Of a stretch of 20,000 nucleotides of DNA, positions 1 through 20,000 are shown in pieces. Under the pieces are notes generated by a model. That model ran no database searches, was not told the origin of the DNA, and saw only the letters and a list, made by a program, of their open reading frames with translations. Both the position numbers and the translations under genes were made by a program. The stretch is from Chiloscyllium plagiosum (Eukaryota): positions 4,221,499-4,241,498 of the forward strand of contig NC_057755.1 of the NCBI RefSeq assembly GCF_004010195.1. Direction: 5' to 3'. Position 1 is the stretch's first letter; each line of letters starts with the position of its first letter.

Positions 1-830
1 ATTCCAATAGTGGCTAAACCAATGTCCCGCACAGCCACAACATGACCTCACCACTTTTATACACAAGGCTCCGAACAATAAAATAAAGCATAACAATCGC
101 CTTCTTTACTATCCTGTCCTATCCATTTCTGACTCTATTTTCCAGGAACTATGAACCTGCAATCCAAGGTCTTTTTGTTCACCAACACTCCATAAGACAT
201 AACCATTAAGAGTATAAGTCCTGCTATGATTTCTTTTCCAAAATCCAGCACCCCATATCTATCTAAATTAAACTCAAACTGCCACTCCTCAGCCCGTTGT
301 CCCGTGCATTCAAGATCCATTTGTACACTGAGGTAATCATCTTCGCTGTCCACTACACCTCCAACTTTGGTGCCATCTGCAAACTTACTAAATATACCCC
401 CTACGTTCACATCCATATCATTTGTATAAATGATGAAAAGTAGTGGAATGAGTATCGATGTCTGTGGCACACCGCTGGTCACAGGCCTCTAGTCTGAAAA
501 GCAGCACTGTCCCAACACCATCTGTCTTCTGCCTTCAAGTCAGCTCTGTAACCAAATGGCGAGTTCTCCTTGTATTCCATGTGACCCAACCTGGCTGACC
601 AGTCTACCACGGGGAACCTTGTAAAATGTCTTACTGAAGTCCTTATAGATCACATCCACTGCTTTGCACTCATCAGTCCTCTTTGTGATTTCTTCAGAAA
701 ACTCAATCAAGTTTGTGAGACATGATTTCCCACTCATCAAGCCATGCTAACTATCCTTAACCAGTTCTTGCCTTTCCAAATACATGTAAATCCTATCCCT
801 CAGGATTCCCTCCAACAACTCGCCCATCTT
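1..830 (-). mobile_element. CR1-clade LINE ORF2 (reverse transcriptase) fragment, degenerate
   Basis: Minus-strand ORF pieces give CR1 RT motifs: LLEGILRDRIYMYLE, GKSCLTNLIEF, DFSKTFYKVPRGRL, TSGVPQTSIL-PLLFIIYTND, SKFADGTKVGGVVD. Several frameshifts. Confidence 0.9.
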
Positions 831-1327
831 GGGAAATTTTCCCCATTGCCAGATAAAAACCAGTGCTCTAGCTATCCTGGAACAGCTTGGTTCTGAGCAG
901 CATTGTGGAATAGAGATGCAAAAATGCATTCCAGGCAATATGTATCATTGACTCCTGCCCCAATAAAGTTTCATTGCATCAAATCAAACATGGGCCAGGG
1001 CACCTCCTATCGATTCTAATGACCTTCACCCACAACATGCCTCCCTGATGACACATCTTTAAGTGGAAACACTTCGAGGAAGCACTGAGAGAGAAACGAC
1101 AAAGACAGCGCAAAGGAATCTCTCTTTCTATCTCTCACACGATCTCTCTCTCTCAGAAGTCCACCTGACTCTTCTGCTGAGAAAACATCAGGAACACTGT
1201 GGAGCACTTTCATCCTCAGACTACCTGGAAACAGTTCCTGTCTGTATCCTCCTAAAGTCTGCTTTGATTGTCTTCCCTGTTCACTGCCTTCCTGTTCAAT
1301 TTGCATGTCATCTGCAAAGTTGGAAGT

Positions 1328-1596
1328 TATGTCGTAAGAACCCACGTGTCGTGGTTATACTGAGGTCAGGCAGGTGGACCTCAGAGAATATGAGTCCCAT
1401 GATTGGGGTTGTTAATCTGGTACAAGCAGGGAGCCCTAGCTGACAGATAAAAGAAAACGAGTGTCAGGTGTCCTGAAGCTCTGAGACCTGGTTCTGAGGG
1501 AAAAGGAGCAGTGTCACCTCCTTTTTATTTACTTGCCCCATGTAAATAAAAGGTGGCGTGATGATGGGATATCAGTCTGTGTGGAGTTATATTACA
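1328..1596 (+). mobile_element. Probable solo LTR (Gypsy-type), about 270 bp
   Basis: Ends in ATTACA; contains an ATTGG box, a GATAAAA TATA-like element and AATAAA (about 1545); flanked by AAGT at 1324-1327 and 1597-1600 (possible 4-bp TSD; 5' end reads TA rather than TG). Confidence 0.5.
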
Positions 1597-2109
1597 AAGT
1601 CCTGTAAAATTCTGAATATAAGCTGCCACCAGTAAGTCTCAGCTGCCAGGAGCACATGTTGGATATTGTGTCTGTGATGATTGTGAAGTTCAGTGTTATT
1701 TTAACGGATCGATCCTGTGATGCCAGTGCTACTGATATTAACCTTGTATTATAATTTATCACCGAGCTCCACAGGAGTAAGGGAAGGAATATGATAGACC
1801 TTTCAAATATAGAGAAAGTCTAATTTGAAGACGCTGAACCTTTCTTATATAATGTCCATAATTCTCAAGAATCAGCAGAAGCATTGTTCTCCAATCTCTG
1901 TTCAGATCAGTTTTTCCCATCTAGATGTTGAACTTGGAATGGTTTGAACCATATAATCTACACTGCTCCCATTTCCTGTACTTTTTTTTTATTTCTTGTA
2001 TCTCAATCTTCATGAAATCTCAACTGAAATATGCTCTGGTGAATATTTCCAGGATGTGAACAGAGGGACACAGAAGGAAACACCCTAGTTCCAGAGAGCT
2101 TTTCAATGA

Positions 2110-2165
2110 TAGAGAGAGGGGAGAGAGAGAGAGAGAGAGGGAGAGGGAGAGGGAGAGAGAGAGGG
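2110..2165. repeat. (GA)n/(GAGAGG)n microsatellite
   Basis: Seen directly; mirrored by (CT)n at 19966-20000. Confidence 0.95.
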
Positions 2166-2383
2166 ACACGGTAGGTGGCAAGTTGAACCCAACGATCGCC
2201 TTGCTTCTCTACATCTCACATCAGTCGTACAACCAATTGTGTTAACGGATTATGACTTATGACATTGTGATTGAGGGGGTGGCAGTTATACAGTTACAAA
2301 TCACCGTTAGGCCTTAGACATAGTCTTGAAGAACTCCAGCAGTGACGTCTGGAGATTAAATGGCTGGCTTCCAACGAACACAC

Positions 2384-2530
2384 CAGTCACATGTAGTCCA
2401 GACCAGGTACAGACAGTCAATTTCTTTCCGTAAAGGACATTAGTGAAACAATGGGTTTTTACAACAAGTTACAATGGTTTCCTCGTCAGTATTAGAGACA
2501 TAATTCCAATTATTTATTCAACTGAAGTTC
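2384..2530 (-). mobile_element. Old SINE-like fragment (resembles the shark Deu-domain SINE type)
   Basis: AGTCACATGTAG-CCAGACCAGGTA...AAAGGACATTAGTGAA...GGGTTTTTACAACAA resembles a repeat I recall as common in shark genomes. Mirrored at about 19620-19760, with a weaker copy near 7530-7630. Family assignment is from memory. Confidence 0.45.
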
Positions 2531-2564
2531 TGGAATCCATCATGATAAGACTTGTCAGAGGTGG

Positions 2565-2697
2565 TACTGCAGATGTTGGAGATTAGAGTCAAGATTAGAG
2601 TAGGTCATCAGGACGAAGGGCTTTTGCCAGAAACTTCGATTTTCCTACTACTCGGATGCTGCCTGACCTGCTGTGTTCTTCCAGCACCACTCTAATC
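2565..2697 (+). mobile_element. Penelope-like element terminal repeat fragment with degenerate hammerhead core
   Basis: GACGAAGGGCTTTTGCCAGAAAC followed by GATGCTGCCTGACCTGCTGTG; the same unit occurs at 10830-10900 and 19469-19550. Confidence 0.7.
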
Positions 2698-3184
2698 ATG
2701 ATAAGATGACCTGAGCCCATCATAATACTTTGGAAGTATCTGAATATTTAGAACCCAAACGTGATACTTTTGTTCCAATAACCAAAATAAGGGTTTTCTG
2801 TTTTGTTATTTAACATTGAATGTAATATTAATTTGTCATTATTTGGTTTCTGGAAAATGGGAACGTAGACATAATGGGGCTGAAAATTGCATTTAATTGG
2901 ATTGACTGTGAACAATTGTGAGACCATTTCGGTTACCTCTGATTGAGATGGGTTCGTGTATTTGTTCAGTGGGAAGCCTGAAGGAATCATGGATGTGCCG
3001 AGTGAACTGTTTTCCTGTGCAAAGGAATGTATTAAGTAGAAAGGTAGAAGAATAATTTACATGTGTTATGTGTGTGCTTGAATATGTGTGTGTGAAATGC
3101 CTCATTCTTCCACATTATGAGTGTTCTATGAAGAATTCTTCCTCTCACTTAGCCTTAAAGGACGTTGGAATGTTTTGATCCTCC

Positions 3185-3410
3185 AGTGCTCTGGTTTCCT
3201 GCCAAAATCCAAAGATGTGCAGGTTAGGTAAATTGACCAAGCTAAATTGCCCATAGTGTTCAAGTATGAGTAAGTTGGGACATTCGTTGGGGCTAGGTGT
3301 AGAGCAATGGGGTGAAGGAGTGGGCCTAGGTGGGTTGGCCTTCGGAGGGTCGTTGTGGACTTATTGGGCAGAAAGGCCTGTTTCCACATTGTCGGGGATT
3401 CTATTCTCTC
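3185..3410 (+). mobile_element. HE1-type V-SINE, 5'-truncated
   Basis: End of the V domain (GTGCTCTGGTTTCCT...CCAAAGATGTGCAGGTTAGG) and CR1-derived tail (GGACTTATTGGGCAGAAAGGCCTGTTTCCACA); matches the fuller copies at 12046-12344 and 18081-18360. Confidence 0.8.
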
Positions 3411-3414
3411 CTGT

Positions 3415-4530
3415 AGTTTTGGCGAGTGTAAAAGTGGACAAGTCCTGAGGTCTGCAGGAGCCGTAACGAACGAGATGACGATGGAAATTATAAGTACTGT
3501 GATCAAATGTTTAATTCCTCTTCAGCTACCCGATTAGTCAGAGGACTTCAGCACAGCTGATGTGTTTCCACTTTTCAAGAAGGGTGGTGGAGATTCACTG
3601 CGAATTACACGTCAGTGATTCCCAGTGCACGGGAAACTATTAGAGAAAATTCTGAAGGAGAGAATTGATCTCCATTTTGAGAGGCAAGGCTAGATCAGTC
3701 ACTGTGGCTTTGTTACAGGGATGAAATGGCTTACAAATCTGGTGGAGTTTTTCGAGTAGTTGACCGTGTCTGGAGATGAGGGTAGGGCAACTGGTGAGGG
3801 TAGGGTATATGGTTTTCAGCAAGGTATTTGACAAGGCAGCACATGGGAGATTAATAACTAAGGTAAAAGCACATGGCATACAAAATTAATTAATTAGCAA
3901 ATTGGTTCCAAAAGTGGCTCTGTCAGAGGAGGCAGAGGGTGTTGATCGAAGGCTGGATGTGTAATTGGAGACTGGTGTTCAGTGCAGTGGTATACCACTG
4001 GGATGGATGTTGTGTCCCTTACTGTTGGTGATATTCATAAATAATAATGAAGAGTGCATGTTTGTGCATGCACATGCGCCCATGTGTATGTGTGTCTGCT
4101 GTATCTGTATCTGAGTCAGTATGTGTGTTTGTGTGTGTGTGTGCGAATGTGTGTGCTGTACGGAATGAGGGTGGGTGGGGATGATAAATAAGTTTGCGAT
4201 GACAAAAATATTGATCGGATGTTTGACAGTGAGGAAAATATTCTTAGGTGACAAACAGAAATAGTTAGGTTGGTCACATGGGCAGATCAATGGCAGGTGG
4301 AATTTAACCCTGATAAACCTGTAGGTGATACACGTTGTCACAAGTTTCAAGACAAGGCAGTACTCAATGAATGGTATGACATTAGAAAGGGCAAAGGAAC
4401 CAAAATATCTTGTGGAGCTTGTTAACAAATCTCTAAAGGTAGTAGGACAGGTCAGTAGGGTAGTTCAGAAGTCGTATATGATATGTGCCTTTACCATTCC
4501 AGACATCAGAGCAGGGAGGTCCTGTTGGAG
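3415..4530 (+). mobile_element. CR1-clade LINE ORF2 fragment with an internal (TG)n tract (about 4055-4160); cut at 4530 by the ERV LTR
   Basis: KVDKS, ADVFPLFKKGG, GKLLEKILKERI, FSKVFDK, KFA-DDTK-like, SLKVVGQVSRVVQK and REVLLE motifs across frameshifts. Confidence 0.85.
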
Positions 4531-5101
4531 TGAAACTTTATATCCTGTTGCAGGCCCTCTTGGTCCTGGGACTCGACAAAAGAATGACTAGGAGTACAAT
4601 CTGCTTAAAGCAAGTTTACCAGTTTAATAAATTAATAAATAGAAGTAGCCTGGGGTAGATTTGCCAGGCAACATGGAGGTTAAAAGTTTCTGTGTTCCGT
4701 AGAGAAATGGTGCAAATACATTTACGTTTTTTTTTAATAGATAGTACAGCCTTAATTACAAGAAAAGACCAATCATATCTAATAAGGTGAAATGATTGAC
4801 AACAGGCTAATCCAATGATATTTCAAGGGAAACAGATTGTTATGTGCATGTTTACTAGTTCAAGGTTACCTCAAAGACGAAATCACTGTCTTATAATTCA
4901 TATTATGAAAATCCATTATAATCTCTTATCTTCTATTTAGCTTAACTCAACAAAACAGCAGCACAAGTTCACAGAGTCAAGTTCATACTTTCAGACATTA
5001 TGTTGTGTTATTTTAAATTGAAAAGCCATTTCGTGGTTAATAAAAATCTACGTATCCTTGTTGCAACTGATAACAGCCTAAATTCAAATTATAGATCCTC
5101 A
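4531..5101 (-). mobile_element. ERV 3' LTR (left-arm copy, 571 bp)
   Basis: On the minus strand it starts TGAGGATCTATA right after the purine run AGGGAA and ends TATAAAGTTTCA (imperfect terminal inverted repeat). It has ATTGG boxes, an A-rich TATA region and ATTAAA, and is homologous to 16594-17264. Confidence 0.8.
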
Positions 5102-5114
5102 TTCCCTGCGTTGG

Positions 5115-6913
5115 TCATTCTATGACCACACCATAAAGGCATGGACCAAATTAATCCAATTCGGTGGCAGTGAAAGACTGCAATCCTTTCTCTTCCTCTG
5201 AAGAGGAATCAAGGACAGGCGATGATGCTTCCTCATCATCATAAAAGTGAGAAGAAGCATTTTCTGGGTGCAACCAATGTTGTCAATAGAAATTAATATT
5301 TTAGCAATAATACACTTATCAATAGCAATGCTAACAAAATGAGCAAATGAACAATAGCAGCATACATAGCCATATTGATAAACCATAAACCAAAACCCCA
5401 ATCTCCCCACCCTGCATCTTCATTCATTTGGTTGACAGAAATGCGGATGATATCTGTATGTCCAATAATGTTTTCGATAAAGTTAGTGACCCCCATGATG
5501 CACTTCCCTTTGACTATGACACAAACGCCACCTTCCTTCACAATAATGTAATCGAGAGCATAGCAGGTTTTGTTGGGTAAATAGGCACAATTCTGAAAGT
5601 AAGACCCTTATTTCTATTAGGCAGCAGTTGTCTCATTTCATGAAATTGTGGGTCCACAAATATTTTGATGATTAATAACTCCTGAAGTCCCTCTAACGGA
5701 AAGAACACGAAGTGCTGCATATGTTAATGAGTGAGTTTTACTATTTGATAGAAGCTTTGGATCCTTCCATTCTGCTCAAAAGTCAGAAGAAACTGAAAGT
5801 TTGACACGGGAATTTGAATCTCGGTGCCAGGTAATTGGACGGGAACAGGAGTTGGAAATGATGCTTCTACAGATACAACACGTGGAGTACTTGCTATATT
5901 CAGGACAAGATACCTTCCTATAACTGAATAATAATATCCAGGTTAAGTATAGATAATGGAGGGATCTTCCCAATAAAAAGCGGGCCTATCTTTGTGACTT
6001 CCTGAGGTACCTGGGTAATCCTTGATTACATAGTTTGGTCCAAACATAAAGGCTGGAAATTATTCAGTCTAATGAGGTGGGTCTCTTGATAAGAATCGTG
6101 GTCGACCTCGCAGAATGGTTCTACCCATCCAATAACTGGGAAGATATTAGTGCAATTAGGTGTATCGTAATGAAGTTGGTTGTGGCAAACCACCCCACAA
6201 AGGGTTTGAATGCCAGAGGTAAAAGAGACACATTCACTCCTTCAGGGAAATAGTGACAACTGATAAATATAGGCATAGCACAGGGGATACTTTTAGGGAA
6301 TTTTACACTCCAATCCGTGCACACCCATCCCTTACTGTTGTAGCAATTTGAATAGGATATAGCGGATTTATTGGAGGATGTCCATAATCCTGTAAATACT
6401 TTAGAATTATTCGTACCCCCATGTTAGGATTTGGAAGGATAAATGAGGTCAGGGAGTGTATTGCTGAAGTAAAGGCGTAACTTCAACCTCTCCAAATATG
6501 TTATTATGAGTTTCGATGAACAAATTGTTAGTGAAGGATAGCATCCCACCTTTCCTCTTTTACTACATGATCTATCTGAAAGGGGCATGGCTCAGTAGAG
6601 ATGCCCATTGTACAAATGAAATTAAACTGACGTACAACATCTTTAGACGATAAAGACCATTTAGATTTGTTCTGTAAATGAACTGGTCAACCTTTTTGAT
6701 GCAGTTGACCACTGCATTAGTCATTCTTGGTAACATTCAGTCTCTTGGCACACAAGGACATCTTCCTGGCAGAGATGGTACACAGTCTCTGGTTGCTCAG
6801 GATCGCACTGGTAAACTGTCCCTTCTTGTGCTCCAAATCTGGCAATGGCAAGTCCATGCAGCCGAGCAAGTGCGATCTATAATATCTCTCCCCTTCCACC
6901 CCCATTTGCAAGT
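5115..6913 (-). pseudogene. env: ERV env pseudogene (left-arm copy), filovirus-GP2-like TM subunit
   Basis: Minus-strand fragments NICGPTIS*NETTAA, ALDYIIVKEGGVCVIVKGKCIMGVTNFIENI, WGDWGFGLW and a hydrophobic TM anchor; many stops and frameshifts. Confidence 0.88.
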
Positions 6914-7413
6914 NNNNNNNNNNNNNNNNNNNNNNNNNNNNNNNNNNNNNNNNNNNNNNNNNNNNNNNNNNNNNNNNNNNNNNNNNNNNNNNNNNNNNNN
7001 NNNNNNNNNNNNNNNNNNNNNNNNNNNNNNNNNNNNNNNNNNNNNNNNNNNNNNNNNNNNNNNNNNNNNNNNNNNNNNNNNNNNNNNNNNNNNNNNNNNN
7101 NNNNNNNNNNNNNNNNNNNNNNNNNNNNNNNNNNNNNNNNNNNNNNNNNNNNNNNNNNNNNNNNNNNNNNNNNNNNNNNNNNNNNNNNNNNNNNNNNNNN
7201 NNNNNNNNNNNNNNNNNNNNNNNNNNNNNNNNNNNNNNNNNNNNNNNNNNNNNNNNNNNNNNNNNNNNNNNNNNNNNNNNNNNNNNNNNNNNNNNNNNNN
7301 NNNNNNNNNNNNNNNNNNNNNNNNNNNNNNNNNNNNNNNNNNNNNNNNNNNNNNNNNNNNNNNNNNNNNNNNNNNNNNNNNNNNNNNNNNNNNNNNNNNN
7401 NNNNNNNNNNNNN
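6914..7413. other. Assembly gap (500 N)
   Basis: Run of N; the round size suggests a nominal length. Confidence 1.
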
Positions 7414-8154
7414 ACTGAAGTCACTCATTTCTCTGAAAACAGAGTTATAACCCACTGCATTTAGCTGACAAAAGTTTAAAATCAATCAGCTAATATGTAC
7501 GATAACTGTTCGTGGGATGCTAAAACAAGATTTATTGTCCATTCCTTATTGCCCAGAAGGCATTTGGGAATGAATCTGGAGTCACGTGTAAATCAGTGTA
7601 GGTAATGTTCTTCACTTAAGAACATTAATGAAGTAGTTATTCACTTGTTTCACCACCATCATCCCTCCCCCAGATAAGCAATAGCGTTTTCATATTTGAC
7701 ATCAGATTATTTGGATATAATTCGTATTTCTTCTCCTTCCTCGATGAGATTCAAAGGCAGCTCTTCAGAACATGAGCTTGATGGTCTTGGATGTCCGTCC
7801 CGTGATAATCCCACCAGTCTACCATGAATTCCTTGTGCAGTTAGTGAATTATGGCAGACATTTCCCATGAGTAAACAATCCACTTCAGTTCTGAAACACT
7901 TCATGTTTATTTGCCTTTTGAAATAAATAAGCAGAAGATTACAACCTTTAAGGCCATTCCATGTCATTGGAAGTCACGGCATTGCTGCAAACGACAGGTG
8001 CCCCTCCCTTGTATTGGACTGTGTTCATTATGTACAGATTTCTCATCAGTGACTGCGCGAAATATGTCTTTAAGGTTCAGTGGTCTCACGGGCTGAGGTG
8101 AAACCTTGGCCCCTGACTGCAGGAATCAATAAACGTCTCGTCTTTGCTTTCCAG

Positions 8155-8288
8155 CTCGATCCCGGAAATGTATATTTGTGGGAGGGGTGTGCAGATTTGA
8201 AAAATGTCTCGATGATGAATTCGAGTTTGGTAAGGGTTGCAGACAACATCACCTTTGCTGCATGAATATCAATGGACCGCAAGGTTAA
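8155..8288 (+). CDS. Beta-defensin-like peptide, terminal coding exon (signal-peptide exon not found)
   Basis: Acceptor TCTTTGCTTTCCAG ends at 8154. With a phase-1 intron the exon reads xRSRKCIFVGGVCRFEKCLDDEFEFGKGCRQHHLCCMNINGPQG* (TAA 8286-8288), i.e. C-x6-C-x4-C-x10-C-x5-CC, with G-x-C at Cys2 and Glu in the Cys3-Cys4 loop. An in-frame stop upstream at 8130-8132 means splicing is needed. ATTAAA at 8374-8379. Confidence 0.82.
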
Positions 8289-8373
8289 TCTGAGGCTGTG
8301 CTGAAGCTTACTGCAAAATCCTTTGTTATTGGATGTGTCCGCATGGACCCTAAGCCACTGTTTCTGTATCATC

Positions 8374-8379
8374 ATTAAA
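8374..8379 (+). promoter_or_regulatory. Candidate polyadenylation signal of the defensin-like gene
   Basis: ATTAAA about 85 nt after the stop codon, followed by GT-rich sequence. Confidence 0.5.
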
Positions 8380-8473
8380 GGTGTTCACTGTTACTCGCAT
8401 CCCGTGGCCCGTGTCTGATTTCAGACCGTGACCGGTGTATCTGGTTATGTCTTTGGTGTGGGGATAAGGACGC

Positions 8474-8519
8474 GGTGGTGGTGGTGGTGGTGGTGGTGGT
8501 GTGGGGGGGGGTGGGGGGG
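8474..8519. repeat. (GGT)n microsatellite followed by G runs
   Basis: Seen directly. Confidence 0.95.
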
Positions 8520-8559: not shown

Positions 8560-8977
8560 GCTCCTAACTACCCAACTTCATAGAACCATTGTCAACAGAG
8601 CCCTCTTACCTGTGTCTGACCCATTTCCCACCCTTTCAACATCAACCCCTTACCCCTCTTACAGCAGAGATCGATTTCTCCTTGTCCTTACCTACCATAC
8701 CACCACCAGCATCCACATCCAGAAAAACATCAGATCCCATTTATAACACCTCCAGTGAGATGCGACCACCAGACACATATTCCAACTTCCGCAGGAATCA
8801 TTCCCTGTGGGACACCCTGGTCCACTCTTGCTTCACTCCTAAGAGCCCCAACACTTGTCTGGCACCTTCCCTTGCAACCCCCTAAGGTACAACCTGCCAA
8901 TTTACCTCTTCCCCACTCAGTATCCAAGGGCTCAAACATGCCTTTCAGGTGAAGCAACGATTTATCATCACTTTTCA
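8560..8977 (+). mobile_element. Penelope-like element ORF fragment (linker and Cys region before GIY-YIG)
   Basis: Frameshifted peptides FRRNHSLWDTLVHS, GTFPCNP and QGLKHAFQVKQRF resemble the RT-to-GIY-YIG linker of vertebrate Penelope-like elements; ends at the gap. Confidence 0.75.
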
Positions 8978-9072: not shown

Positions 9073-9528
9073 GTATTCGAACTAACATTGAACCGCTACG
9101 ATGACGTGTATATTTACATAAATTAAGACCCCTTCCCCAGGGAATATCGTTGGATTAGCCTGTTGTCAATCATTTTATCTATTACAGTTGATTGGACTTT
9201 TCTTGTAATTAAGAATCATTTCCCAGGAAATATCACTGGATTAATCTGCTGGAAATCATGTCATCTTATTAAATGTGATTGGTCTTTTCTTGTAATTAAG
9301 GTTGCACTATCTCTTAAAAACAGACAAAGAATCTCAAAGATTCCAAGGTAATTGCACAACTTCACCACAGAACACAAAAGTTTTAGCCTTTGTGTTGCTG
9401 AACAGAATTGCATCAAGGTGCCTTAATGCAATAAACTAATGACGCTTGCCTTTTTCTAAACTGCATTCCATTGAATATTTTGACCGATTACAAAACAAGA
9501 GGCCTCTCTTGAGGTGTTTGGATCTTCA
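9073..9528 (+). mobile_element. ERV 5' LTR (5' part lost in the gap)
   Basis: Direct-orientation homologue of about 16817-17264: the same two roughly 89-bp ATTGG-containing U3 units (9130-9300), AATAAA at 9430-9435, and an end GATCTTCA matching AATCTTCA of the 3' LTR. Confidence 0.8.
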
Positions 9529-9531
9529 TTT

Positions 9532-9549
9532 TTGTGCCATGTTTCATTT
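9532..9549 (+). promoter_or_regulatory. Possible degenerate primer-binding site (tRNA-His-like)
   Basis: TTGTGCCATGTTTCATTT, 3 nt after the LTR end, matches 11/18 positions of the recalled His PBS TGGTGCCGTGACTCGGAT. The position fits but the match is weak. Confidence 0.25.
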
Positions 9550-10509
9550 CAGCTCAGACAGGTCGTTAACAGCGGTGTAAGAGTTAAATTTCTTTCACTA
9601 TTCGGCCGGCCAGATGTGAACATTTTAAGAGCGTTTGGTTTTCCTCTCATTCAAGTCGTGTCTGACATGACCCCTCCCTGTTTATGTTCCAGTCCAGCTC
9701 AAAAGCATCGCTGTTAACAAGGGTTGTTTCTGGGGGACTATGGGGGTCGTGGGTGGTGGTGGGGAGACATTGACTGAGGTTAGCGTTGCTTTTGTACTTA
9801 GGACAGTGGTTTCCGAAAATTGCTGAACTACGAGGAGAGTGTTGAACTCTGAATCTCCCGAACTTCGTTCATTTCCTGGTTTAAAAAGAAGCTCCAATCT
9901 TTGGATCTTCAGCAGTTTTTCGAGGCTGGTGGCCTCAACAGTTTTAATACAGGCAGTTAACTATTACAGAGATAGGAGCCCCCCCACCCCCCCCACCCCC
10001 GATATTTGTGGCTATTACTGGGGCAGTTGACCCCGATATTTAATACAGGTGGTTGATGTTAATTTACAGTGTATTGACTAAGATTTATCTGCTTATAATA
10101 GATAGAAAGGAGGCCTGGATCTTAATAATAAGTTAATAACTAATAATAATAATACCTTAAAAAATCAATACTGAAGTTGATTAATAAAAGAAAATATTGC
10201 AGTATTTTATAAATAAAGGTTAATTTAGTTTTTAAAAAGAGTTTGCGAAATAAATTAACGTTTGTGGAATCCTGATTGGTGAGTTATTTTTTAATCAGTT
10301 GCTATAAAACTGAAGTAATTTTAAAATGGGTAATTGCATAGACAGAACAGATGATCCATCCCCATCGTTAGTGACATTATGTGAAAAAGCTCGAGATCCA
10401 TGACTGTTTTGAATCTGATTTGCATTTTGAAAATTTAACATGATTTATTTTAATGTTAAGGATCCTTCAGTGATTCTGAAATAAAATATTATCTCCTGTT
10501 CAGTTTACA

Positions 10510-10943
10510 GGTCATAACTGTCCTTACCCCACGTCACCCCAGCTGCAGCTTCCAGCTCAGCAACGCTCTCATGACCTATCCTATCTGCCGATCTTCCATT
10601 CCACCTATCAACTCCACCCTCCTCTCTGACCTACCACCTTCATCCCCACCCCCATTCACCCATTGTACTCTTTGCTACCTTTTCCCAACATCATTTCTGA
10701 CCATCCCCATCCCCATTTACCATCTTCCATCCCCACCCTCATTCACCTGAAGTCCTCTATCCTACTCTCTCTCCACCCCCACCCCCCTCTCATTTATCTC
10801 TCCACCCTGCAGGCACCCTGCCTCTATTCCTGACGAAGGGCTTTTGCCCGAAACAATGATTTTCCGGCTCCTTGGGTGCTGCCTGACCTGCTGTGCTTTA
10901 ATCTCGACTCTGGTTTCCAGCATCTGCAGTGCTTGTTTTTACC
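10510..10943 (+). mobile_element. Penelope-like element 3' region/terminal repeat inserted in the provirus
   Basis: C-rich tract followed by CCTGACGAAGGGCTTTTGCCCGAAAC...TGCTGCCTGACCTGCTGTGC...TTCCAGCATCTGCAGT. Confidence 0.75.
10830..10860 (+). ncRNA. Minimal hammerhead ribozyme core of a Penelope-like element, probably inactive
   Basis: CTGACGA, stem II GGGC-TTTT-GCCC, then GAAAC. The expected cleavage triplet after GAAAC reads AAT rather than GTC. Confidence 0.6.
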
Positions 10944-12045
10944 ATGGCTGCCCTACTGTCAGTTTCTAACAAATACCTTTTATTCTTACGAGAAAGTCAA
11001 CCTTATTCGATTTCAAATCAGTTTAATAAGCAGCAACCTTTTTTGTTTCAGACTCGCTTGTTTCCACTTAATATTAAGTCTGCTGTGTTTAATTGGTGAT
11101 CACTGATAAGCACAGTTGTAGTCTTATTGAGGGAGTCTCCTCCCTCAATGACTATTGAAGTTTCAGTTCAATATTGGATTGCGATAAATCATCTAACAAA
11201 ATTAGAACCCGATGGTTAATATCTGTGTCTTTGGATTCAGCCATTATTCATGCACTAGAAGTTTGCTTTTTCATTTGAACAGACAAAACCTTTTGAGGCA
11301 GCTTCCGTTATTTCACGACCTTTAGCATTGTAAATGTGCAATGACTGGTCAAGACCAATCTTGGACTTTTAGGGTAATTATAGTGGATTTCAATGTTGGG
11401 AACCGTGTACATTTTACGTTTTAAATATTAAATGATGAACAAATGAATTTGCAATTTATATTGATGACTGAAAGAAAATAACATGCGGCATGTTACTTAG
11501 ATACATAGTGTAAAAATAATGACCAGAGATATATTACCACAGAGGAGATCTGCTCTCAAAACAAGAAAAGAGAACTAACCACTGTTGATCCTCCAATGTC
11601 CACAAAAAGAAATGAAAACTTGTTTTCCAGGCTCTTCTTCAGCTGGATCCCCACTCAATAATGGGCAAAGTGTGCTTGGTAACACTCCACTCAATATCCA
11701 CACTAAATTCTATCCACATCATTAGCAGTCTCTAAAAATGTAAAAGGACTACTGACTGACTTAAGCAGTCACCGCTGTCACCCAGAATTCCACCCTTTGG
11801 ACAATAGGGACAGCCAAACACATCAAGGAATAGGTGTTAAATCAATCGCTATTTCATTTGTAGCATCACTGCCCCATTGCCATGGAGTAAGCAGGCTCAA
11901 TAATTTCGCAGCCATGTGATACAGTGACCAGGATGATTGAAAGAGACAAATCACCTATTTTGTTATTCTCCTCTTGCAAATTTTGATTCGCTGAAAATTC
12001 AAGTCCGAAGAGTAACTTTCAGATTATTTATTATTATTTTTTAAT

Positions 12046-12344
12046 TAGATTACATTGCAGTGTGGAAACAGGCCCTTCGGCCCAATAAGTCCACACCGAC
12101 CCGCCGAAGTGCAACCCACCTACATTTACACCTTACCTAACACTACGGGCAATTTCGCATGGCCAATTCACATTTCCTGCACATCTTTGGACTGTGGGAG
12201 GAAACTGGAGCACACGTAGGAAACCTGCGCAGACTCGGGGAGAACGTGCAAACTCCACACAGTCAGTCGCCTGATGCGGTATTTGAACCTGGGTCTCTGG
12301 CGCTGTGAGGCAGGAGTGCTAACCACTGTGCCACCGTGCCGCCC
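12046..12344 (-). mobile_element. HE1-type tRNA-derived V-SINE, full length
   Basis: Minus strand begins GGGCGGCACGGTGGCACAGTGGTTAGCAC (A box), then GGTTCAAATACC (B box), V domain TGTGTGGAGTTTGCACGTTCTCCCCG and tail GGGCCGAAGGGCCTGTTTCCACACTG. Confidence 0.92.
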
Positions 12345-12714
12345 ACTAATGACAATTATGACAATCAAGATTCCAAAATGTATAGTTAGCAACAGGCTTT
12401 AAAGTTAGACAAACATAAATTGTTAAATTGGTTAAATAAGGTTAAAATTAAATTAGAGCCGAGGAGATCAACAACAGAAGGGAACGGAATGATGCAATAA
12501 CAAGGATAAAACAAGGATAAAGCAGTAGAATACAGATTTTAAAAATGTTTTAGTTAGATTCCCACACTGAATTACAGATAATGATTCATTTATTCATTAC
12601 TTTATTATGATACTTTATACTATTTATAATAATCAGTTGTATTCGCCCCAATCAAATTTCATTGGCAGGGTCGCTTGTTTTAATTCCATTGCACATTGTC
12701 AGTGACCTGTCTTA

Positions 12715-13095
12715 TTGCCTCATGGCTAACTTAAAACATGGCTGCATTAATTTATTGTTAATTAAACAATGGAAAGATAACTTACTGTCCAGTTGAAGAC
12801 ATTCTGTATGTGATTGGGGGATTGAACCATGATGCAAGTTACAGGTAAACCAAATTATATCCAGCGCCCTCACGATCCCAAAAGCCATATGCCAGTCCTG
12901 ATATGGTTGATTGGAACCAGGATAGCCAATGGGGGCGGAACCTACTTCATGCACCAACCCGACGACCACTGCTGGACAACCTTTTCCCGAAAATGGGGAC
13001 AGGCAATTCCCAGAACTTCACCTTTGAGACGAGGAACAAGAAAGCAAAATCTCCCAGGGACATACGCCTGGCCCTTGCTTTAACTGTTGAAATGT
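12715..13095 (+). pseudogene. gag: ERV gag 3' remnant (nucleocapsid zinc-knuckle half)
   Basis: 13067-13090 reads PGPCFNC* (TGA where Gly is expected), the first half of a CX2CX4HX4C knuckle. It lies between the LTR and RNase H; the upstream boundary is approximate. Confidence 0.5.
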
Positions 13096-13124
13096 GACCA
13101 AGGCGGAGTAATAAGTTTTTAATG

Positions 13125-13403
13125 GTAGCTCGGAACTGATGTTGGGAATCGGCATGCTTTCATCCTATCAAAAGGAAAATCTACAAATATACACTGACTC
13201 TTCATTGTGTTTTTAAAATGATCCACGATGTTGGAGTTTTGTGGGAACATTGAAGATTTGTAACCACCCAAGGGGGCAGTGTTATAGTAATGCTATTTTG
13301 TCCAATCAATCTGACGCTTTTCAAGATGTTTAGCTCATGCCAATAAAGCTGATACTGTTTCTAAAGTAGTGGGTAAGTATATGCAGCTGCCAAGTAGGCC
13401 GGC
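13125..13403 (+). pseudogene. pol: ERV pol RNase H remnant (gamma/epsilon-like)
   Basis: Across frameshifts: ILSKGKSTN-YTDS, CVFKMIHDVGVLWEH*RFVTTQG, RCLAHANKADTVSK, YAAAK*A, matching the NIYTDSRYAF..HDFG.LW..RGFLT / KC.AH / D.AAK.A pattern. Confidence 0.75.
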
Positions 13404-14630
13404 TTTCACAGCAAACTTCTGAGCCCATTGGGTCCCCCAGCAAAACCCGGTTAGACACAGAATAAGGACGGGTATGCCAGCTCTGGGTAAGGTACAGAAA
13501 TCACCGGGGAATGAGACTATCTGTTCAGTGCCAATTCACAATGTAAAGGTTGATATATCTATTGCTTACTCACTGTAAAAAAGTTTACTGTTTGAATCAT
13601 TTTCCATATTGTTTAGAAATTTGGAAGTAATTTTCAAATGACCATTTCTGAAATGATACAGGCACTTTATATTAAAATATACTACTGACTGAATTATCAA
13701 GTGATTTGAGTTCATACATAGACACTAAGACTAAATGTCGTTGCTTTGTGTTTGCAGCTTATCTGAATGCACACTAGTTGATTTGATTTATCTTTGGACG
13801 GGGCTGTTAGATGTAAGGAGGAATGTCCGGCTGAACTATTACCTTCAATTAGATATTTGATACTGAACAGTGATGGTTTATAATTTTAAGACTGTGCCAA
13901 TGTCCAAATTCAAGGTTCGCTCAATATTAGAAAATGTCAGTGTGGTTTGAAAGCTTTGTGTCATGTTACTATAATTTGGGGACAGCATTGCCCACCAGCT
14001 ACTCATCGCCAACTTTTCTGCTCAAAATGACCATCTGGTTGCTACACTGAATTCTAAATACTGTTAACTACAGCTGTAGGTCGGGCCATTCGATTGGGCA
14101 CGAAGTTGACGTATGATTTTAAAGAGAATACAATATATTGCGGAACTAATCTAAATTTTAGGTAAAATTGATGTTTTTCGCAGCAAACCTTCGAAGACTA
14201 TTACCTCTTAGCAAAGCTGGCTTTATAAAAATAGGATTGTTTAATTCGCCCATGCCAGGGCTCCTCCATATAAAGTAAGAAAATAATGGATAGGAAGGGA
14301 ATCTCTGGTGCAAAGTTTAAAAATAATGAGCCTTTTGCCAGTGTGAGCGATATATTTACTCAAGTGGGCTACATGAGTTTGATTAAATTGAGAATTATTT
14401 ATTTCAAAATTGCTCTTAAGACTTCTAGCCTGCTGATGGGCACACATTATGGCCTCAAATAGGGTACTCCCACGATATTCAAACCAGAATATAGGTGAGT
14501 CCTACTACATGAGTTTGTGTTACTGCTTTGCTGCTGCATATTTTAATTGAGGATGTGTATATTGTATACACTTATATACAAGGAGGGAATGGTTTATACT
14601 TTATTACAATGGACACTCCACGGCCTCATA

Positions 14631-14777
14631 CCCTGATGGGAAGGACCCTTCCAGGTCGTCCTCACCACCCCAACTGTTGCTTAGGTCGCAGAACGTTCTG
14701 GCTGAGTCCATCTCCATCATTGCAAGGTCATCAGAAAAGCCACTTGCACGCGGGATGGAAGAGGAGAGATAATATAG
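14631..14777 (+). pseudogene. pol: ERV pol integrase C-terminal (GPY/F) remnant
   Basis: One frame reads P*WEGPFQVVLTTPTVA*VAERSG*VHLHHCKV, matching the gamma/epsilon-retroviral PRWxGPY/FxVLLTTPTAxKV...WIHxxHxK motif; the stops fall at the R, K and W positions. Confidence 0.9.
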
Positions 14778-16580
14778 ATCGAACTTGCCCGGCTGTGTGG
14801 ACTTGCCATTGCCAGCTTTGGAGCACAAGAAGGGACAGTTTACCTGTGCGATCCAGAGCAACCAGAGACTGTGTATCATCTCTGCCAGGAAGATGTCCTT
14901 GTGTGCCAAGAGACTGAATGTTACCAAGAATGAGTAATGCAGTGGTCAACTGCATCAAAAAGATTGAACAGTTCATTTACAGAACAAATCTAAATGGTCT
15001 TTACCCTGTAAAGGTGTTGTGTGCCAGTTAAATTTCATTTGTACTATGGGCATCCCTGGTCAGCCATGTCCCCTTTTAGATAGATCATGCAGTAAAAGAG
15101 GAAAGGTGGGATGCGATCTTTCACTAACAATTTGTTTCTCGAAACCCATAATAACTTATTTGGAGAGGTTGAAGTTACGCCTTTACTTCAGCAATAGACT
15201 CCCTGACCTCTTTTCTCCTTCTAAATCCTATCATGGGGGTATCGAATAGTTCTAAAGTATTTACAGGATTATGGACATCCTCCAATAAATCCGCAATATC
15301 CTATCCAAATTGCTACAACAGTAACGGATGGGGGTGCACGGATTGGAGTGTACTTATGTAAAATTGCCTACAATTATCCCCTGTGCTATGCCTAAATGTA
15401 TCAGTTGTCACTGTTTCCCGGAAGGACCACACATTCCTTCAGGAGGAATGTGTCTCTATTACCTCTGGTATTCAAATTCTTTGTGGGGTATTTTACCACC
15501 ACCAACTTCATTATGATACACCTAATTGCACTAATATTTTCCCCGTTATTGGATGGGTAGAACCATTCTGCGATGTCGATCACGTTTCTTATCAAGAGAC
15601 CCACCTCATTCGACTGAATGATTTCCAGCCTTTTTGTTCGGAACCAAACTATATAATCAAGGATTACCCAGGTACCTCAGGAAGTCACAAAGATAGGCCC
15701 GCTTCTTATTGGGAAGGTCACTCCATTATCTATACTTAACCTGGATATTATTATTCAGTTATAGTGAGGCATCTTGTCCTGAATACAGCAAGTACTCCAC
15801 GTGTTGTAGCTGTCGAAGCATTATTTCCAACTCCTGTTCCCTGTCCAATTACCTGGCACCGAGATTCAAATTCCCGTGTCAAACTTTCAGTTTCTCCTGA
15901 GTTTTGTGCAGAATGGAAGGATCCAAAGTTTCTATCAAATAGTAAAACTCACTCATTAACATATGCAGCACTTAGTGTTCTTTCCGTTAGAGGGTCTTCA
16001 GGAGTTATTAGTCATCAAAACATTTGTGGACGCACAATCTCATGAAATGAGACAATTGCTTCCTAATCGAGGTAAGGGTCGTGCTTTCAGAATTGTGCCT
16101 ATTTACCCAACAAAACCGCGATGCTCTCGATTACATTATTGTGAATGAAGATGGCATTTGCATCATAGTCAAAGGAAAGTGCATCATGGGGGTCACTAAC
16201 TTTATCGAAAACATTACTGGACAAATAGATATCATCCGCACTTCTGTCAACCAAATGAATGAAGGTGCAGGGTGGGGAGATTGGGGTTTTGGTTTATGGT
16301 ACAAAGGGCTTATCAATATGGCTATGTATGCTGCTATTGTTCATTTGGTCATTTTGTTAGTATTGCTATTGATCAGTGTATTATTGCTAAAATATTAATT
16401 TATATTGACAACATTGGTTTCACCCAGAAAATACTAATTCTCCACTTTGATGATGATGATGCGGAAGCATCATCGCCGGTCCCTGATTCCTCTTCAGAGG
16501 AAGAGAAAGGATTGCAGTCTTTCGCTGCCATAGAATTGGATGAATTTGGTCCATGCCTTTATGGTGTAGTCATTGAATGA
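14750..16580 (+). pseudogene. env: ERV env pseudogene (right-arm copy): Cys-rich SU and filovirus-GP2-like TM
   Basis: Directly follows integrase. Signal-like LARLCGLAIAS; Cys-rich SU fragments; RVKL at 15875-15886 at the furin-site position; Cys at 15905 and 16025; NET at 16046; ISD-like QQNRDALDYII; C-x6-C; Trp-rich WGDWGFGLW; TM anchor; tail ending in TGA at 16578-16580. Start is approximate. Confidence 0.9.
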
Positions 16581-16593
16581 TCAACGCAGGGAA

Positions 16594-17264
16594 GGAGGAT
16601 CTATAATTTGAATTTAGCTGTTGTCAGATGCAACAAGTATATGTAGATTTTTATTAACTACGAAATAGCTTTTCAATTTAAAATAACACAACATAATGGC
16701 TAAAAGTAAGAACTTGACTCTGTGAACTTGTGCTGCTGCTTTGTTGAGTTAATCTAAATAGAAGATAAGTGATTATAATGGATTTTCATAATATGAATTA
16801 TAAGACAGTGATTTCGTATTTGAGGTAAACTTGAACTAGTAAACATGCGTACAACAATCTATTTCCCTTGAAATGTCATTGGATTAGCCTGTCGTCAATC
16901 ATGTCACTATATTACAGTCGATTGGACTTTTCTGCTAATTAAGATACTTTTCCCAGGAAATATCATTGGATTAACCTCCTGTAAATGATGTCACCTTATT
17001 AGATATGATTGGTCTTTTCTTGTAATTCAGGCTGTACTATCTATAAAAAACATAAGTAATAAGTAATTGTCAAATGTATTTGCACTATTTCTCTACGGAG
17101 CACAGAAACGTTTAACCTCCGTGTTGCTTGGCAAATCTACCCCAGTCTACCTCTATTTATTAATTTATTAAACGTGTAACCTTGCTTTAAACAGATTGTA
17201 CTCCGAATCATTCTTTTGACGAGTCCTAAAACCAAGAGGGCCTGCAACGGGGTATAAATCTTCA
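16594..17264 (+). mobile_element. ERV 3' LTR (671 bp)
   Basis: Follows AGGGAA (short PPT-like run); starts GGAGGATCTATA (TGAGG... in the left copy) and ends TATAAATCTTCA (12-bp imperfect inverted termini); tandem U3 units 16861-17030; TATAAAA 17042-17048; ATTAAA 17167-17172. Confidence 0.82.
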
Positions 17265-18665
17265 CTCCAACAGGACCTCCCTATTCTTATGTCTCGAATG
17301 GTAAAGGCACATATCCTATACGCCTTCTGAACGACCCTATTAACCTGTCCTGCTACCTTTAGAGATCTGTTAACAAGCTCCTCAAGATCTTTTGGTTCCT
17401 TTGCCCTACCTAGTGTCGTATTATTCATTGAGTACTGCCTTCTTTTGAAGCTTCTAGTAACCGGTATCACCTACAGGTTTATCAGGGTTACATTCCACCT
17501 GTCATTGATCTGCCCATTCACCAACCTTTCTATTTCTGATTGTCACCGAAGAATATTTTTCTCACTGTCAAACATCCGATCAATATTTGTGACATGGCAA
17601 ACATATTTATCATCCCCACACACACTCAGCCCCTACAGCACACACATTCACAACACACAAGCATACTCTGACACACACAAACACGAACACACAGACTCAC
17701 TCACATACAGACACAACAGACACACACACACATGTGCACACGTGTGCATGCACAAAAAGGCACATTCTTCATTATCATTTATGAATATCACCAACAGTAA
17801 GGGACCCAACATTCATCCGAGTAGTACACCACTTCATCTGATCACCAGCCTTCAATTACACATCCAGCTTTCTATCAACACCCTCTGCCTCCTCTGACAG
17901 AGCAAATTTTGGAACCAAATTGCTAATTAATTGTGGATGCAACGTGCTTTTACCTTAGTTATCAATCTCCCATGTGCTGCCTTGTCAAAGGCCTTGGTGA
18001 AAGCCATACACACTGCATCAGTTGCCCTACTCTCATCGACAGACACGGTCAACTACACGAAAAGTCCCATCAAGTTTGTGAGCGGCACGGTGGCACAGTG
18101 CTTAGCACTGCTGCCTCACAGCACCAGAGACCCGGGTTCAATTCCCAACTCAGGCGACTGACTGTGTGGAATTTGCACATTCTCCCCGTGTTTCCTCTGG
18201 GTGCTCCGGTTTCCTCCCAGAGTCCAAATATGTAAAGGTCAGGTGAATTGGCCATGCTAAATTGCCTGTTGTGTTAGGTTAATGAATGGGAATGGGTGGG
18301 TTACGCTTCGGCGGGTCGGTGTGGACTTGTTGTAAATACTGTAAATAATCTCATCTAATCTCTGTAACAAAGCCGCAGTGACTGATCTAGCCTTGCCACT
18401 CAAAATGGAGATCAATTCTCTCCTTCAGAATTTTCTCTAATAGTTTCCCGTGCACTGCGAATCACTGACGTGTAATTCCAGGTCAATCTCCACCACACTT
18501 CTTGAAAAGTGGAAACACATCAGCTGTGCTGAAGTCCTCTGATTCATCGGGTAGCTGAAGAGGAATTAAAAATTTGATCACAGTACTTGTAATTTCCACG
18601 ATCATCGCCTTGGTTACAGCTCCCGCAGACCTCAGGACTTGTCCACTTTTGGACTCGCCAAAACT
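17265..18665 (-). mobile_element. CR1-clade LINE ORF2 fragment (mirror of 3415-4530) with a (CA)n tract and a nested SINE
   Basis: ADVFPLFKK, DLEELVNRSLKVAGQVNRVVQKAY motifs; (CA)n-rich tract about 17615-17755. Confidence 0.85.
18081..18360 (+). mobile_element. HE1-type V-SINE, present only in the right arm
   Basis: GCGGCACGGTGGCACAGTGCTTAGCAC A box, GGTTCAATTCCC B box, V domain; the matching left-arm site (about 3720-3730) is empty. Confidence 0.9.
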
Positions 18666-18671
18666 ACTGTA

Positions 18672-18885
18672 TAGAATAGAATCCTTACAGTGTAGAAACA
18701 GGCCCTTCGGCCCAACAAGTCCATGCCGACCCTCCGAAGGGCAACCCATACTGGCCCAATACTCTCCATCTAGCCGCAACGAATGCACCCAACCTAGTCT
18801 TACCCGAACATGATGGGCACTTTAGCTTGGTCAATTCATCTAACCTGCACATCTTTGGATTGTGGGAGGAAACCAGAGCACCTGG
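18672..18885 (-). mobile_element. HE1-type V-SINE, 5'-truncated (mirror of 3185-3410)
   Basis: GAAACAGGCCCTTCGGCCCAACAAGTCC tail and AACCTGCACATCTTTGGATTGTGGGAGGAAACCAGAGCAC V-domain end. Confidence 0.85.
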
Positions 18886-19388
18886 AGGATCAAGACATTC
18901 CAACGTCCTTTAAAGCTAAGTGAGAGAAAGAATTCTTAATAAAACACTCATAATGTTGATGCATGAGGCATTTTACACACACACATTCAAGCACATGCAT
19001 GACACATATGCCTCTCACACGTAAATTATTCTTCTACCTTTCTGCTGAATACATTACTTTGTACAGGAAAACAGTTCCCTCGGCTTATCAATGATTCCTT
19101 CAGGCTTCCCACTGAAAAAATACACGAACCCATCTCAATCAGAGGCAACCTAAATGGTTTCACAATTGTTCACAGTCAATCCAATTAAATAAATTTTCAG
19201 CCCCATTATGTCTACATTCCCATTTGGTAGAAATCAAATAATGAGAAATTAATATTACACACAATGTTAAATAACAAAACAGAAAACCTTTATTTTGTTT
19301 ATTGGAACAAAAGTATCACGTTTGGGTTCGAAATATTCAGATACTTCCAAAGTATTATGATGGACTCAGGTCATCTTATCATGGTTAA

Positions 19389-19590
19389 AGTGGCGCTGGA
19401 AGAGCACAGCAGGACAGGCAGTATCCGAGGAGCAGAAAAATCGAAGTTTCGGGCAATAGCCCTTCGTCCTGATGAAGTGCTTTTGCCCGAAACATCGATT
19501 TTTCTGCTCCTCAGATGCTGCCTGACCTGCTGTGCTTTTCCATCACCACTCTAATCTTGACTCTAATCTCCAAAATCCGCATCACCACCT
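19389..19590. mobile_element. Two head-to-head Penelope-like terminal repeats forming a roughly 80-bp-arm palindrome with hammerhead cores
   Basis: 19390-19468 is the approximate reverse complement of 19471-19550; the + arm has CTGATGA (19469)...GAAAC (19489) ATC. Confidence 0.8.
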
Positions 19591-20000
19591 CTGACAAGTT
19601 TTATCATGATGGCTTCCGGAACTTCAGTTTAATGTGTGATTGGAATTTTGCCTCTAATACTATTATTGTCAATTGTTGTAAAAAAAACCCATTGTTTCAC
19701 TCATGTCCTTTTGGGGAAAGAAAACTACTGTCTGTACCTGGTGTGGTCTACATGTGACTGGTCTGTTTGTTGGAGGCCAGCCATTTAAACTCCAGGACTT
19801 CACTGCTAGCGTTCCTCAAGAATGTGTCTGAGGCCTAATTGTGTTTCGTGACTGACTAACTGCCACTCCCTCAATCATAACGTCATAAATCAGAATCCGT
19901 TAACACAATGACTTGTGATGTAGAGAAGCAAGGTAATCTTTAGGTTCAACTTGCCAACTGCCGTGTCTCTCTCTCTCTCCCTCTCCCTCTCTCTCTCTCT

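Follow-up and report, generated by a model that had tools for sequence, protein, structure and literature searches.

Does the short six-cysteine reading frame that lies between two inverted repeat arms in the genome of the shark Chiloscyllium plagiosum belong to a working beta-defensin gene? To address this question, we analyzed a 20,000-nt stretch of contig NC_057755.1 (the window; positions are counted from its first letter), in which a preliminary description had proposed an exon of this kind. Based on sequence comparisons, we consider it reasonably likely that positions 8155-8288 are the last coding exon of an intact two-exon defence beta-defensin gene, which would itself be part of a large, fast-diverging array. 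Here, we describe the exon and the region around it, and then weigh the readings in which it is silent, has another role, or is no exon at all.

The coding exon occupies 8155-8288 on the forward strand: 134 nt, with 43 full codons and a stop, encoding a beta-defensin-type mature peptide, as identified from the frame, Pfam and Atlas searches, and a contig from a second sample. It is preceded by a predicted splice acceptor in phase 1 at 8140-8154 (forward strand), a polypyrimidine tract (10 of 12 pyrimidines) plus CAG, which reads ...gtctttgctttccag and has its last base at 8154. Phase-1 entry leads into an open frame at 8157-8288, closed by TAA at 8286-8288, and a motif scan of this frame places six cysteines at 8169-8261 in the arrangement C-x6-C-x4-C-x10-C-x5-CC, with a net acidic core. 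A putative 3' UTR (8289-8379, forward strand) follows and ends in an ATTAAA polyadenylation signal (8374-8379). The preliminary description had listed the 134-nt length, the acceptor, the phase-1 entry, a 6-4-10-5-CC frame without lesions, the stop and the ATTAAA, and each of these was confirmed in the sequence. Thus, 8155-8288 is a real, undamaged coding exon of beta-defensin type. Upstream, the exon frame is closed by a TAA at about 8130, and there is no ATG between this TAA and the exon; this is therefore not an intronless gene, and an upstream exon is required. The CpG observed/expected ratio is 0.86 in the exon versus 0.43 in the window, a weak difference given the few sites. The region 7414-8500 is present only once in the window. 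A candidate for a decayed second exon near 13758 was rejected, as its score of 30 is below all 40 best scores of shuffled queries (37.5-60).

The first exon had been expected in the assembly gap at 6914-7413 or further upstream. The gap is represented by 500 N, which is not a measured size. We scanned for an ATG, a hydrophobic stretch and a phase-1 donor; on the forward strand this returned two rows, both in one TG-rich repeat, and a looser scan of 1-8154 yielded nothing convincing. Of the 64 ATG-to-phase-1-GT combinations in 1-8154, 34 passed a loose hydrophobicity filter. The best-looking candidate, 6678-6729, was rejected: it has a weak donor and is antisense to an env-like remnant. A hydrophobic stretch in one frame at 9496-9562 (forward strand) is followed by a weak phase-1 donor, has no start codon and may be due to chance; because it lies downstream of the exon, it cannot be the first exon. 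Since the sequenced part of 1-8154 holds no convincing candidate, the gap is the likeliest site of the signal-peptide exon, and perhaps also of a paralogue. The expected placement is thus consistent with the scans, although no signal-peptide exon was seen.

The exon does lie between inverted arms, as first described. Comparison of the window with itself delimits a left arm at 2132-6902, which belongs to an old inverted duplication and runs into the gap, and a right arm at 14752-20000, which runs off the window; the two are 88% identical over 4952 aligned columns. The exon's surroundings are decayed retroelements. Both arms contain a decayed env-like endogenous retrovirus remnant (15100-16398, forward strand; mirror copy at about 5293-6600, reverse strand), and the frame at 16051-16395 has a weak Pfam match to TLV_coat (E 0.0034), the one match among the 39 frames scanned in 9500-16900. 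The window also contains a three-copy LTR-like element (9121-9528 and 16853-17270 on the forward strand, and 4840-4530 on the reverse strand), which carries CCAAT- and TATA-like motifs and has a repeat of about 86 bases inside it. We considered this element as a defensin promoter and rejected it, since no copy is upstream on the exon's strand; because it follows the env-like frame, we read it as LTR-like. One old provirus could account for the copies at 9121 and 16853, as its two LTRs; against this, 38 of the 39 frames between them have no Pfam match. A fragment at 8560-8977 (forward strand) may resemble the end of a Penelope-like retroelement, and one at 135-488 (reverse strand) is a LINE reverse-transcriptase fragment (PF00078 relatives). 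At 19379-19560, two short repeat copies stand back to back in a 182-base palindrome at 85%; in the left arm this repeat occurs once, near 2605-2701.

Independent reads give a second view of the locus. Four of 16 runs were compared with 7414-8470 at an 85% likeness threshold. Run X1 has the same species label, and while the kind of run is not on record, its coverage reaches 30 of 30 bins, as DNA would. One X1 contig (record 7) spans 8017-8370 with four other letters and one gap; within the exon a single difference is listed, a missense change in codon 8; the frame and the six cysteines are kept, and no listed change falls inside the ATTAAA hexamer. Because X1 diverges from the window by less than 1%, and the sole exon change is missense, the intact frame in X1 is a weak sign of selection.

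A second X1 contig (record 6, 309 letters) points to a paralogue with the same intron end but a diverged coding exon. It aligns with 8002-8154 (forward strand), with 20 other letters and two gaps over 153 bases, such that the 3' end of the intron is common to a second locus at about 86% identity. The alignment ends exactly at the acceptor AG (8154), and the remaining 134 letters are unlike the window; an arbitrary break at exactly this position has about a 1% chance. A search for neighbouring paralogues had been suggested, and this contig is paralogue-like in its intron, although its exon part is not alignable. Faster evolution of the coding exon than of the intron is suggested by this pattern, but not proven, since neutral copies at 85.6% would be missed by the 85% threshold across the exon in 37% of cases. 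The arms (88% identical) are about as similar to each other as the window is to the paralogue-like contig (86%). The duplication may therefore extend into the gap, which may then contain both first exons and a twin of the gene in inverted orientation. Rather than standing alone, the gene is probably one of many copies in a large family or array. Further upstream in the intron, at 7702-8025, many X1 contigs stack at 92-100% likeness; this pile is either a low-copy repeat or intron sequence common to further family members.

The RNA comparison was small. In two raw RNA runs from one sample (X5 and X6, about 2% and 6% read, without a positive control), no reads fell on the exon: the four X5 reads that were placed are all on a repeat near 7522-7593, and no X6 reads were placed. 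Run X7 likewise has no contig over the exon. Because so small a part of the two runs was read, from one sample and without a positive control, the zero is no test of expression. It would fit a reading of the exon as an orphan or silent copy: a true exon 2 whose frame is as yet without lesion, but which lost its first exon or promoter, or was parted from it, through the inverted duplication and the insertion of retroelements. Such a copy would explain why exon 1 was not found in sequenced DNA, why no RNA reads cover the exon, and why decayed retroelements lie all round it. However, the acceptor, frame, six cysteines, stop and poly(A) signal are intact, also in X1; CpG is retained in the exon (weak evidence); the gap sits at the expected place of exon 1; and the RNA zeros come without a positive control. 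We therefore regard a silent copy as unlikely, while giving it real weight.

If the gene is live, to which family does it belong? Across 24,736 Pfam models, the sole match was to Defensin_beta_2 (PF13841), with residues 5-35 aligned to positions 2-30 of the 30-position profile. Its score was 14.8 bits (E 0.04), where 22.2 is the cut-off, so that the profile search suggested in the preliminary description names the expected family and no other, but at a score below the curated cut-off. In the Atlas, where scores below 0.9 count as leads only, the top three matches are beta-defensin clusters (0.81-0.83), the second of them the beta-defensin 30 cluster, and all ten of the ten best matches fall in one family/clan; with both defensin families skipped, nothing usable remained. 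PDB sequences gave one weak match (E 0.47) to helianthamide (4x0n), which we take to be an amylase inhibitor with a beta-defensin fold. A word-based homologue search among proteins of 23-76 aa found none, and HMMER over 1.84 billion representatives found no true relative; its single match, a repetitive cation-ATPase-like protein, lacks four of the six cysteines and is spurious. Two single-sequence AlphaFold models were of low confidence (pLDDT 55.0 and 52.9). The first of these, searched for similar folds, gave no Foldseek matches and a best VIA-align Z of 2.5, and thus no meaningful match; because the model is of low confidence, these fold searches are uninformative either way. In all, the assignment to the beta-defensin family is supported by the cysteine spacing, the phase-1 intron and the leads from Pfam and the Atlas, together with record 6, the paralogue-like contig whose alignment stops at this acceptor. 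The exon appears to be a further member of this known family, and close relatives were absent from the protein collections searched.

The charge of the peptide constrains its possible role. The exon peptide has 7 K/R, 5 D/E and 2 H, and its computed charge of +1.9 at pH 7 agrees with the earlier count of 7 K/R against 5 D/E and a net of about +2. The C1-C6 core alone, however, is at -1.1 at pH 7 and -2.3 at pH 8, and the positive charge lies outside the core, chiefly in the N-terminal RSRK. The net charge of the mature peptide thus depends on the cleavage site (+1.9 for the whole exon vs -1.1 for the core), and cleavage behind the RK pair would leave a net negative peptide. In the mechanism we propose, a signal-peptide exon, most likely inside the 6914-7413 gap, would splice to 8155; the precursor would be secreted and then trimmed to about 40 residues, and the resulting peptide would fold via C1-C5, C2-C4 and C3-C6 disulfides (pattern from PMC7203481). 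With its acidic core and basic N-terminal tail, it could act as an epithelial host-defence or immune-signalling peptide, through target binding and leukocyte attraction. Given the acidic core and the +1.9 of the whole peptide, target binding or immune signalling is more likely than strong electrostatic lysis of membranes. In flounder, an anionic beta-defensin both inhibits bacteria and acts as a leukocyte attractant (PMC8698591). The predicted peptide most likely serves host defence and immune signalling more than it acts as a strongly cationic membrane lyser.

A peptide of the same fold could also be expressed for a main job other than defence, for example as part of the sperm coat or egg case in the reproductive tract, or as an enzyme or receptor ligand. 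The acidic core would suit such a role, as would the best Pfam match (Defensin_beta_2), the second Atlas match, whose namesake beta-defensin 30 is in mammals largely epididymal, and helianthamide as the best match among PDB sequences. These scores are weak and cysteine-driven; moreover, the flounder peptide indicates that anionic fish defensins can be antibacterial. We consider a non-defence role improbable.

How readily could such a pattern arise without a gene? The strict six-cysteine motif has one match in the six frames of the window and none in 300 dinucleotide shuffles, and the relaxed motif matches only the same site. For the published lizard spacing, the analytic expectation is 0.0026 per window. 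A chance six-cysteine pattern in non-coding DNA is very improbable: the relaxed motif did occur twice in the 300 shuffles, the scan spans very many windows and no significant homologue or fold match was found, but the joint expectation falls to 7e-5 per window once a phase-1 acceptor is required no more than ten open codons upstream, and to 7e-7 once two glycines are added too, and the second locus (record 6) breaks at the same acceptor.

Returning to the reading of a beta-defensin gene, we compared the exon with known defensins, as described in the accessible portions of the cited articles. Beta-defensins span teleosts to mammals, and a phase-1 intron just ahead of the cysteine region is conserved in beta- and big defensins (PMC7203481). 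The exon has this family mark at 8154, the predicted acceptor. Its spacing fits the lizard motif C-X(6-7)-C-X(3-5)-C-X(8-14)-C-X(5-7)-CC (PMC12278569), and it shares with tetrapod beta-defensins (PF13841, PF00711) the glycines before C2 and near C4; it differs from them in its sub-cut-off Pfam score, its net acidic core, and in being known from the last exon alone. The exon also follows the mammalian two-exon plan in holding all six cysteines and the stop (PMC8231796). The earlier contrast between two-exon amniote and three-exon teleost genes stands for mammals and teleosts; for birds and reptiles it needs qualification, since three exons are drawn for these groups as well (PMC8231796) and the 63 genes of a lizard array have two to four exons (PMC12278569). 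Large beta-defensin arrays are thus already known from the lizard genes, and the locus here probably resembles tetrapod and lizard arrays in its divergent copies. Markers of the reptile cluster are CTSB, XKR6, MTMR9 and XPO1 (PMC12278569).

With teleosts, the exon shares the phase-1 first intron (in sea bass, the first exons are 55 and 58 bp long, both 3n+1; PMC8231796), the mature length of about 40 residues, and the existence of an anionic member (flounder, PMC8698591). In contrast, teleost genes have three exons and few copies (up to seven cited), and the 58-, 112- and 22-bp exons of sea bass defensin-2 place the final CC (Cys58, Cys59) in exon 3 (PMC8231796), whereas here the CC shares an exon with the other cysteines. 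A teleost-type second intron within the mature-peptide region is absent, with the six cysteines and the stop in one open exon. Invertebrate big defensins and beta-defensin-like peptides also have the phase-1 intron before the cysteine module (PMC7203481), and helianthamide resembles the peptide in sequence, if weakly. Big defensins differ in needing an N-terminal hydrophobic domain on upstream exons, while the gene here is known from its cysteine exon; they are reported only from invertebrates and amphioxus in the accessible text of PMC7203481.

In the literature searched, from which supplements and most subscription journals were outside the scope, we found no paper on a shark beta-defensin, though database annotation is possible. 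Several genome papers on sharks and skates show no occurrence of the word "defensin"; in the available portion of PMC10707392 it appears only within a reference, and the list of shark antimicrobial peptides in PMC6795676 (section 14), as far as accessible, does not include a beta-defensin. The exon probably comes from a lineage without a beta-defensin in the literature and collections searched.

We tentatively propose, as a reading that we hold open rather than favor, that sharks have a large, undescribed array of two-exon beta-defensin genes that grew by segmental and inverted duplication, in which introns change slowly while the mature exon diversifies under selection; the exon described here would be live, and its inverted twin and both first exons would lie head to head in the gap. 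What this locus itself contributes is an independent sign that intron ends are common to copies whose coding exon is not alignable. A confirmed shark array would fill a gap, as beta-defensins are placed from teleosts to mammals and none is given among shark peptides in the accessible parts of PMC7203481 and PMC6795676. It would also polarise the evolution of gene structure, and would provide peptides that evolved to work in salt and urea. If the array reading is true, the jawed-vertebrate ancestor would already have had the family, arrays of it and the cysteine module in one exon, and the third exon and small copy number of teleosts would be derived.
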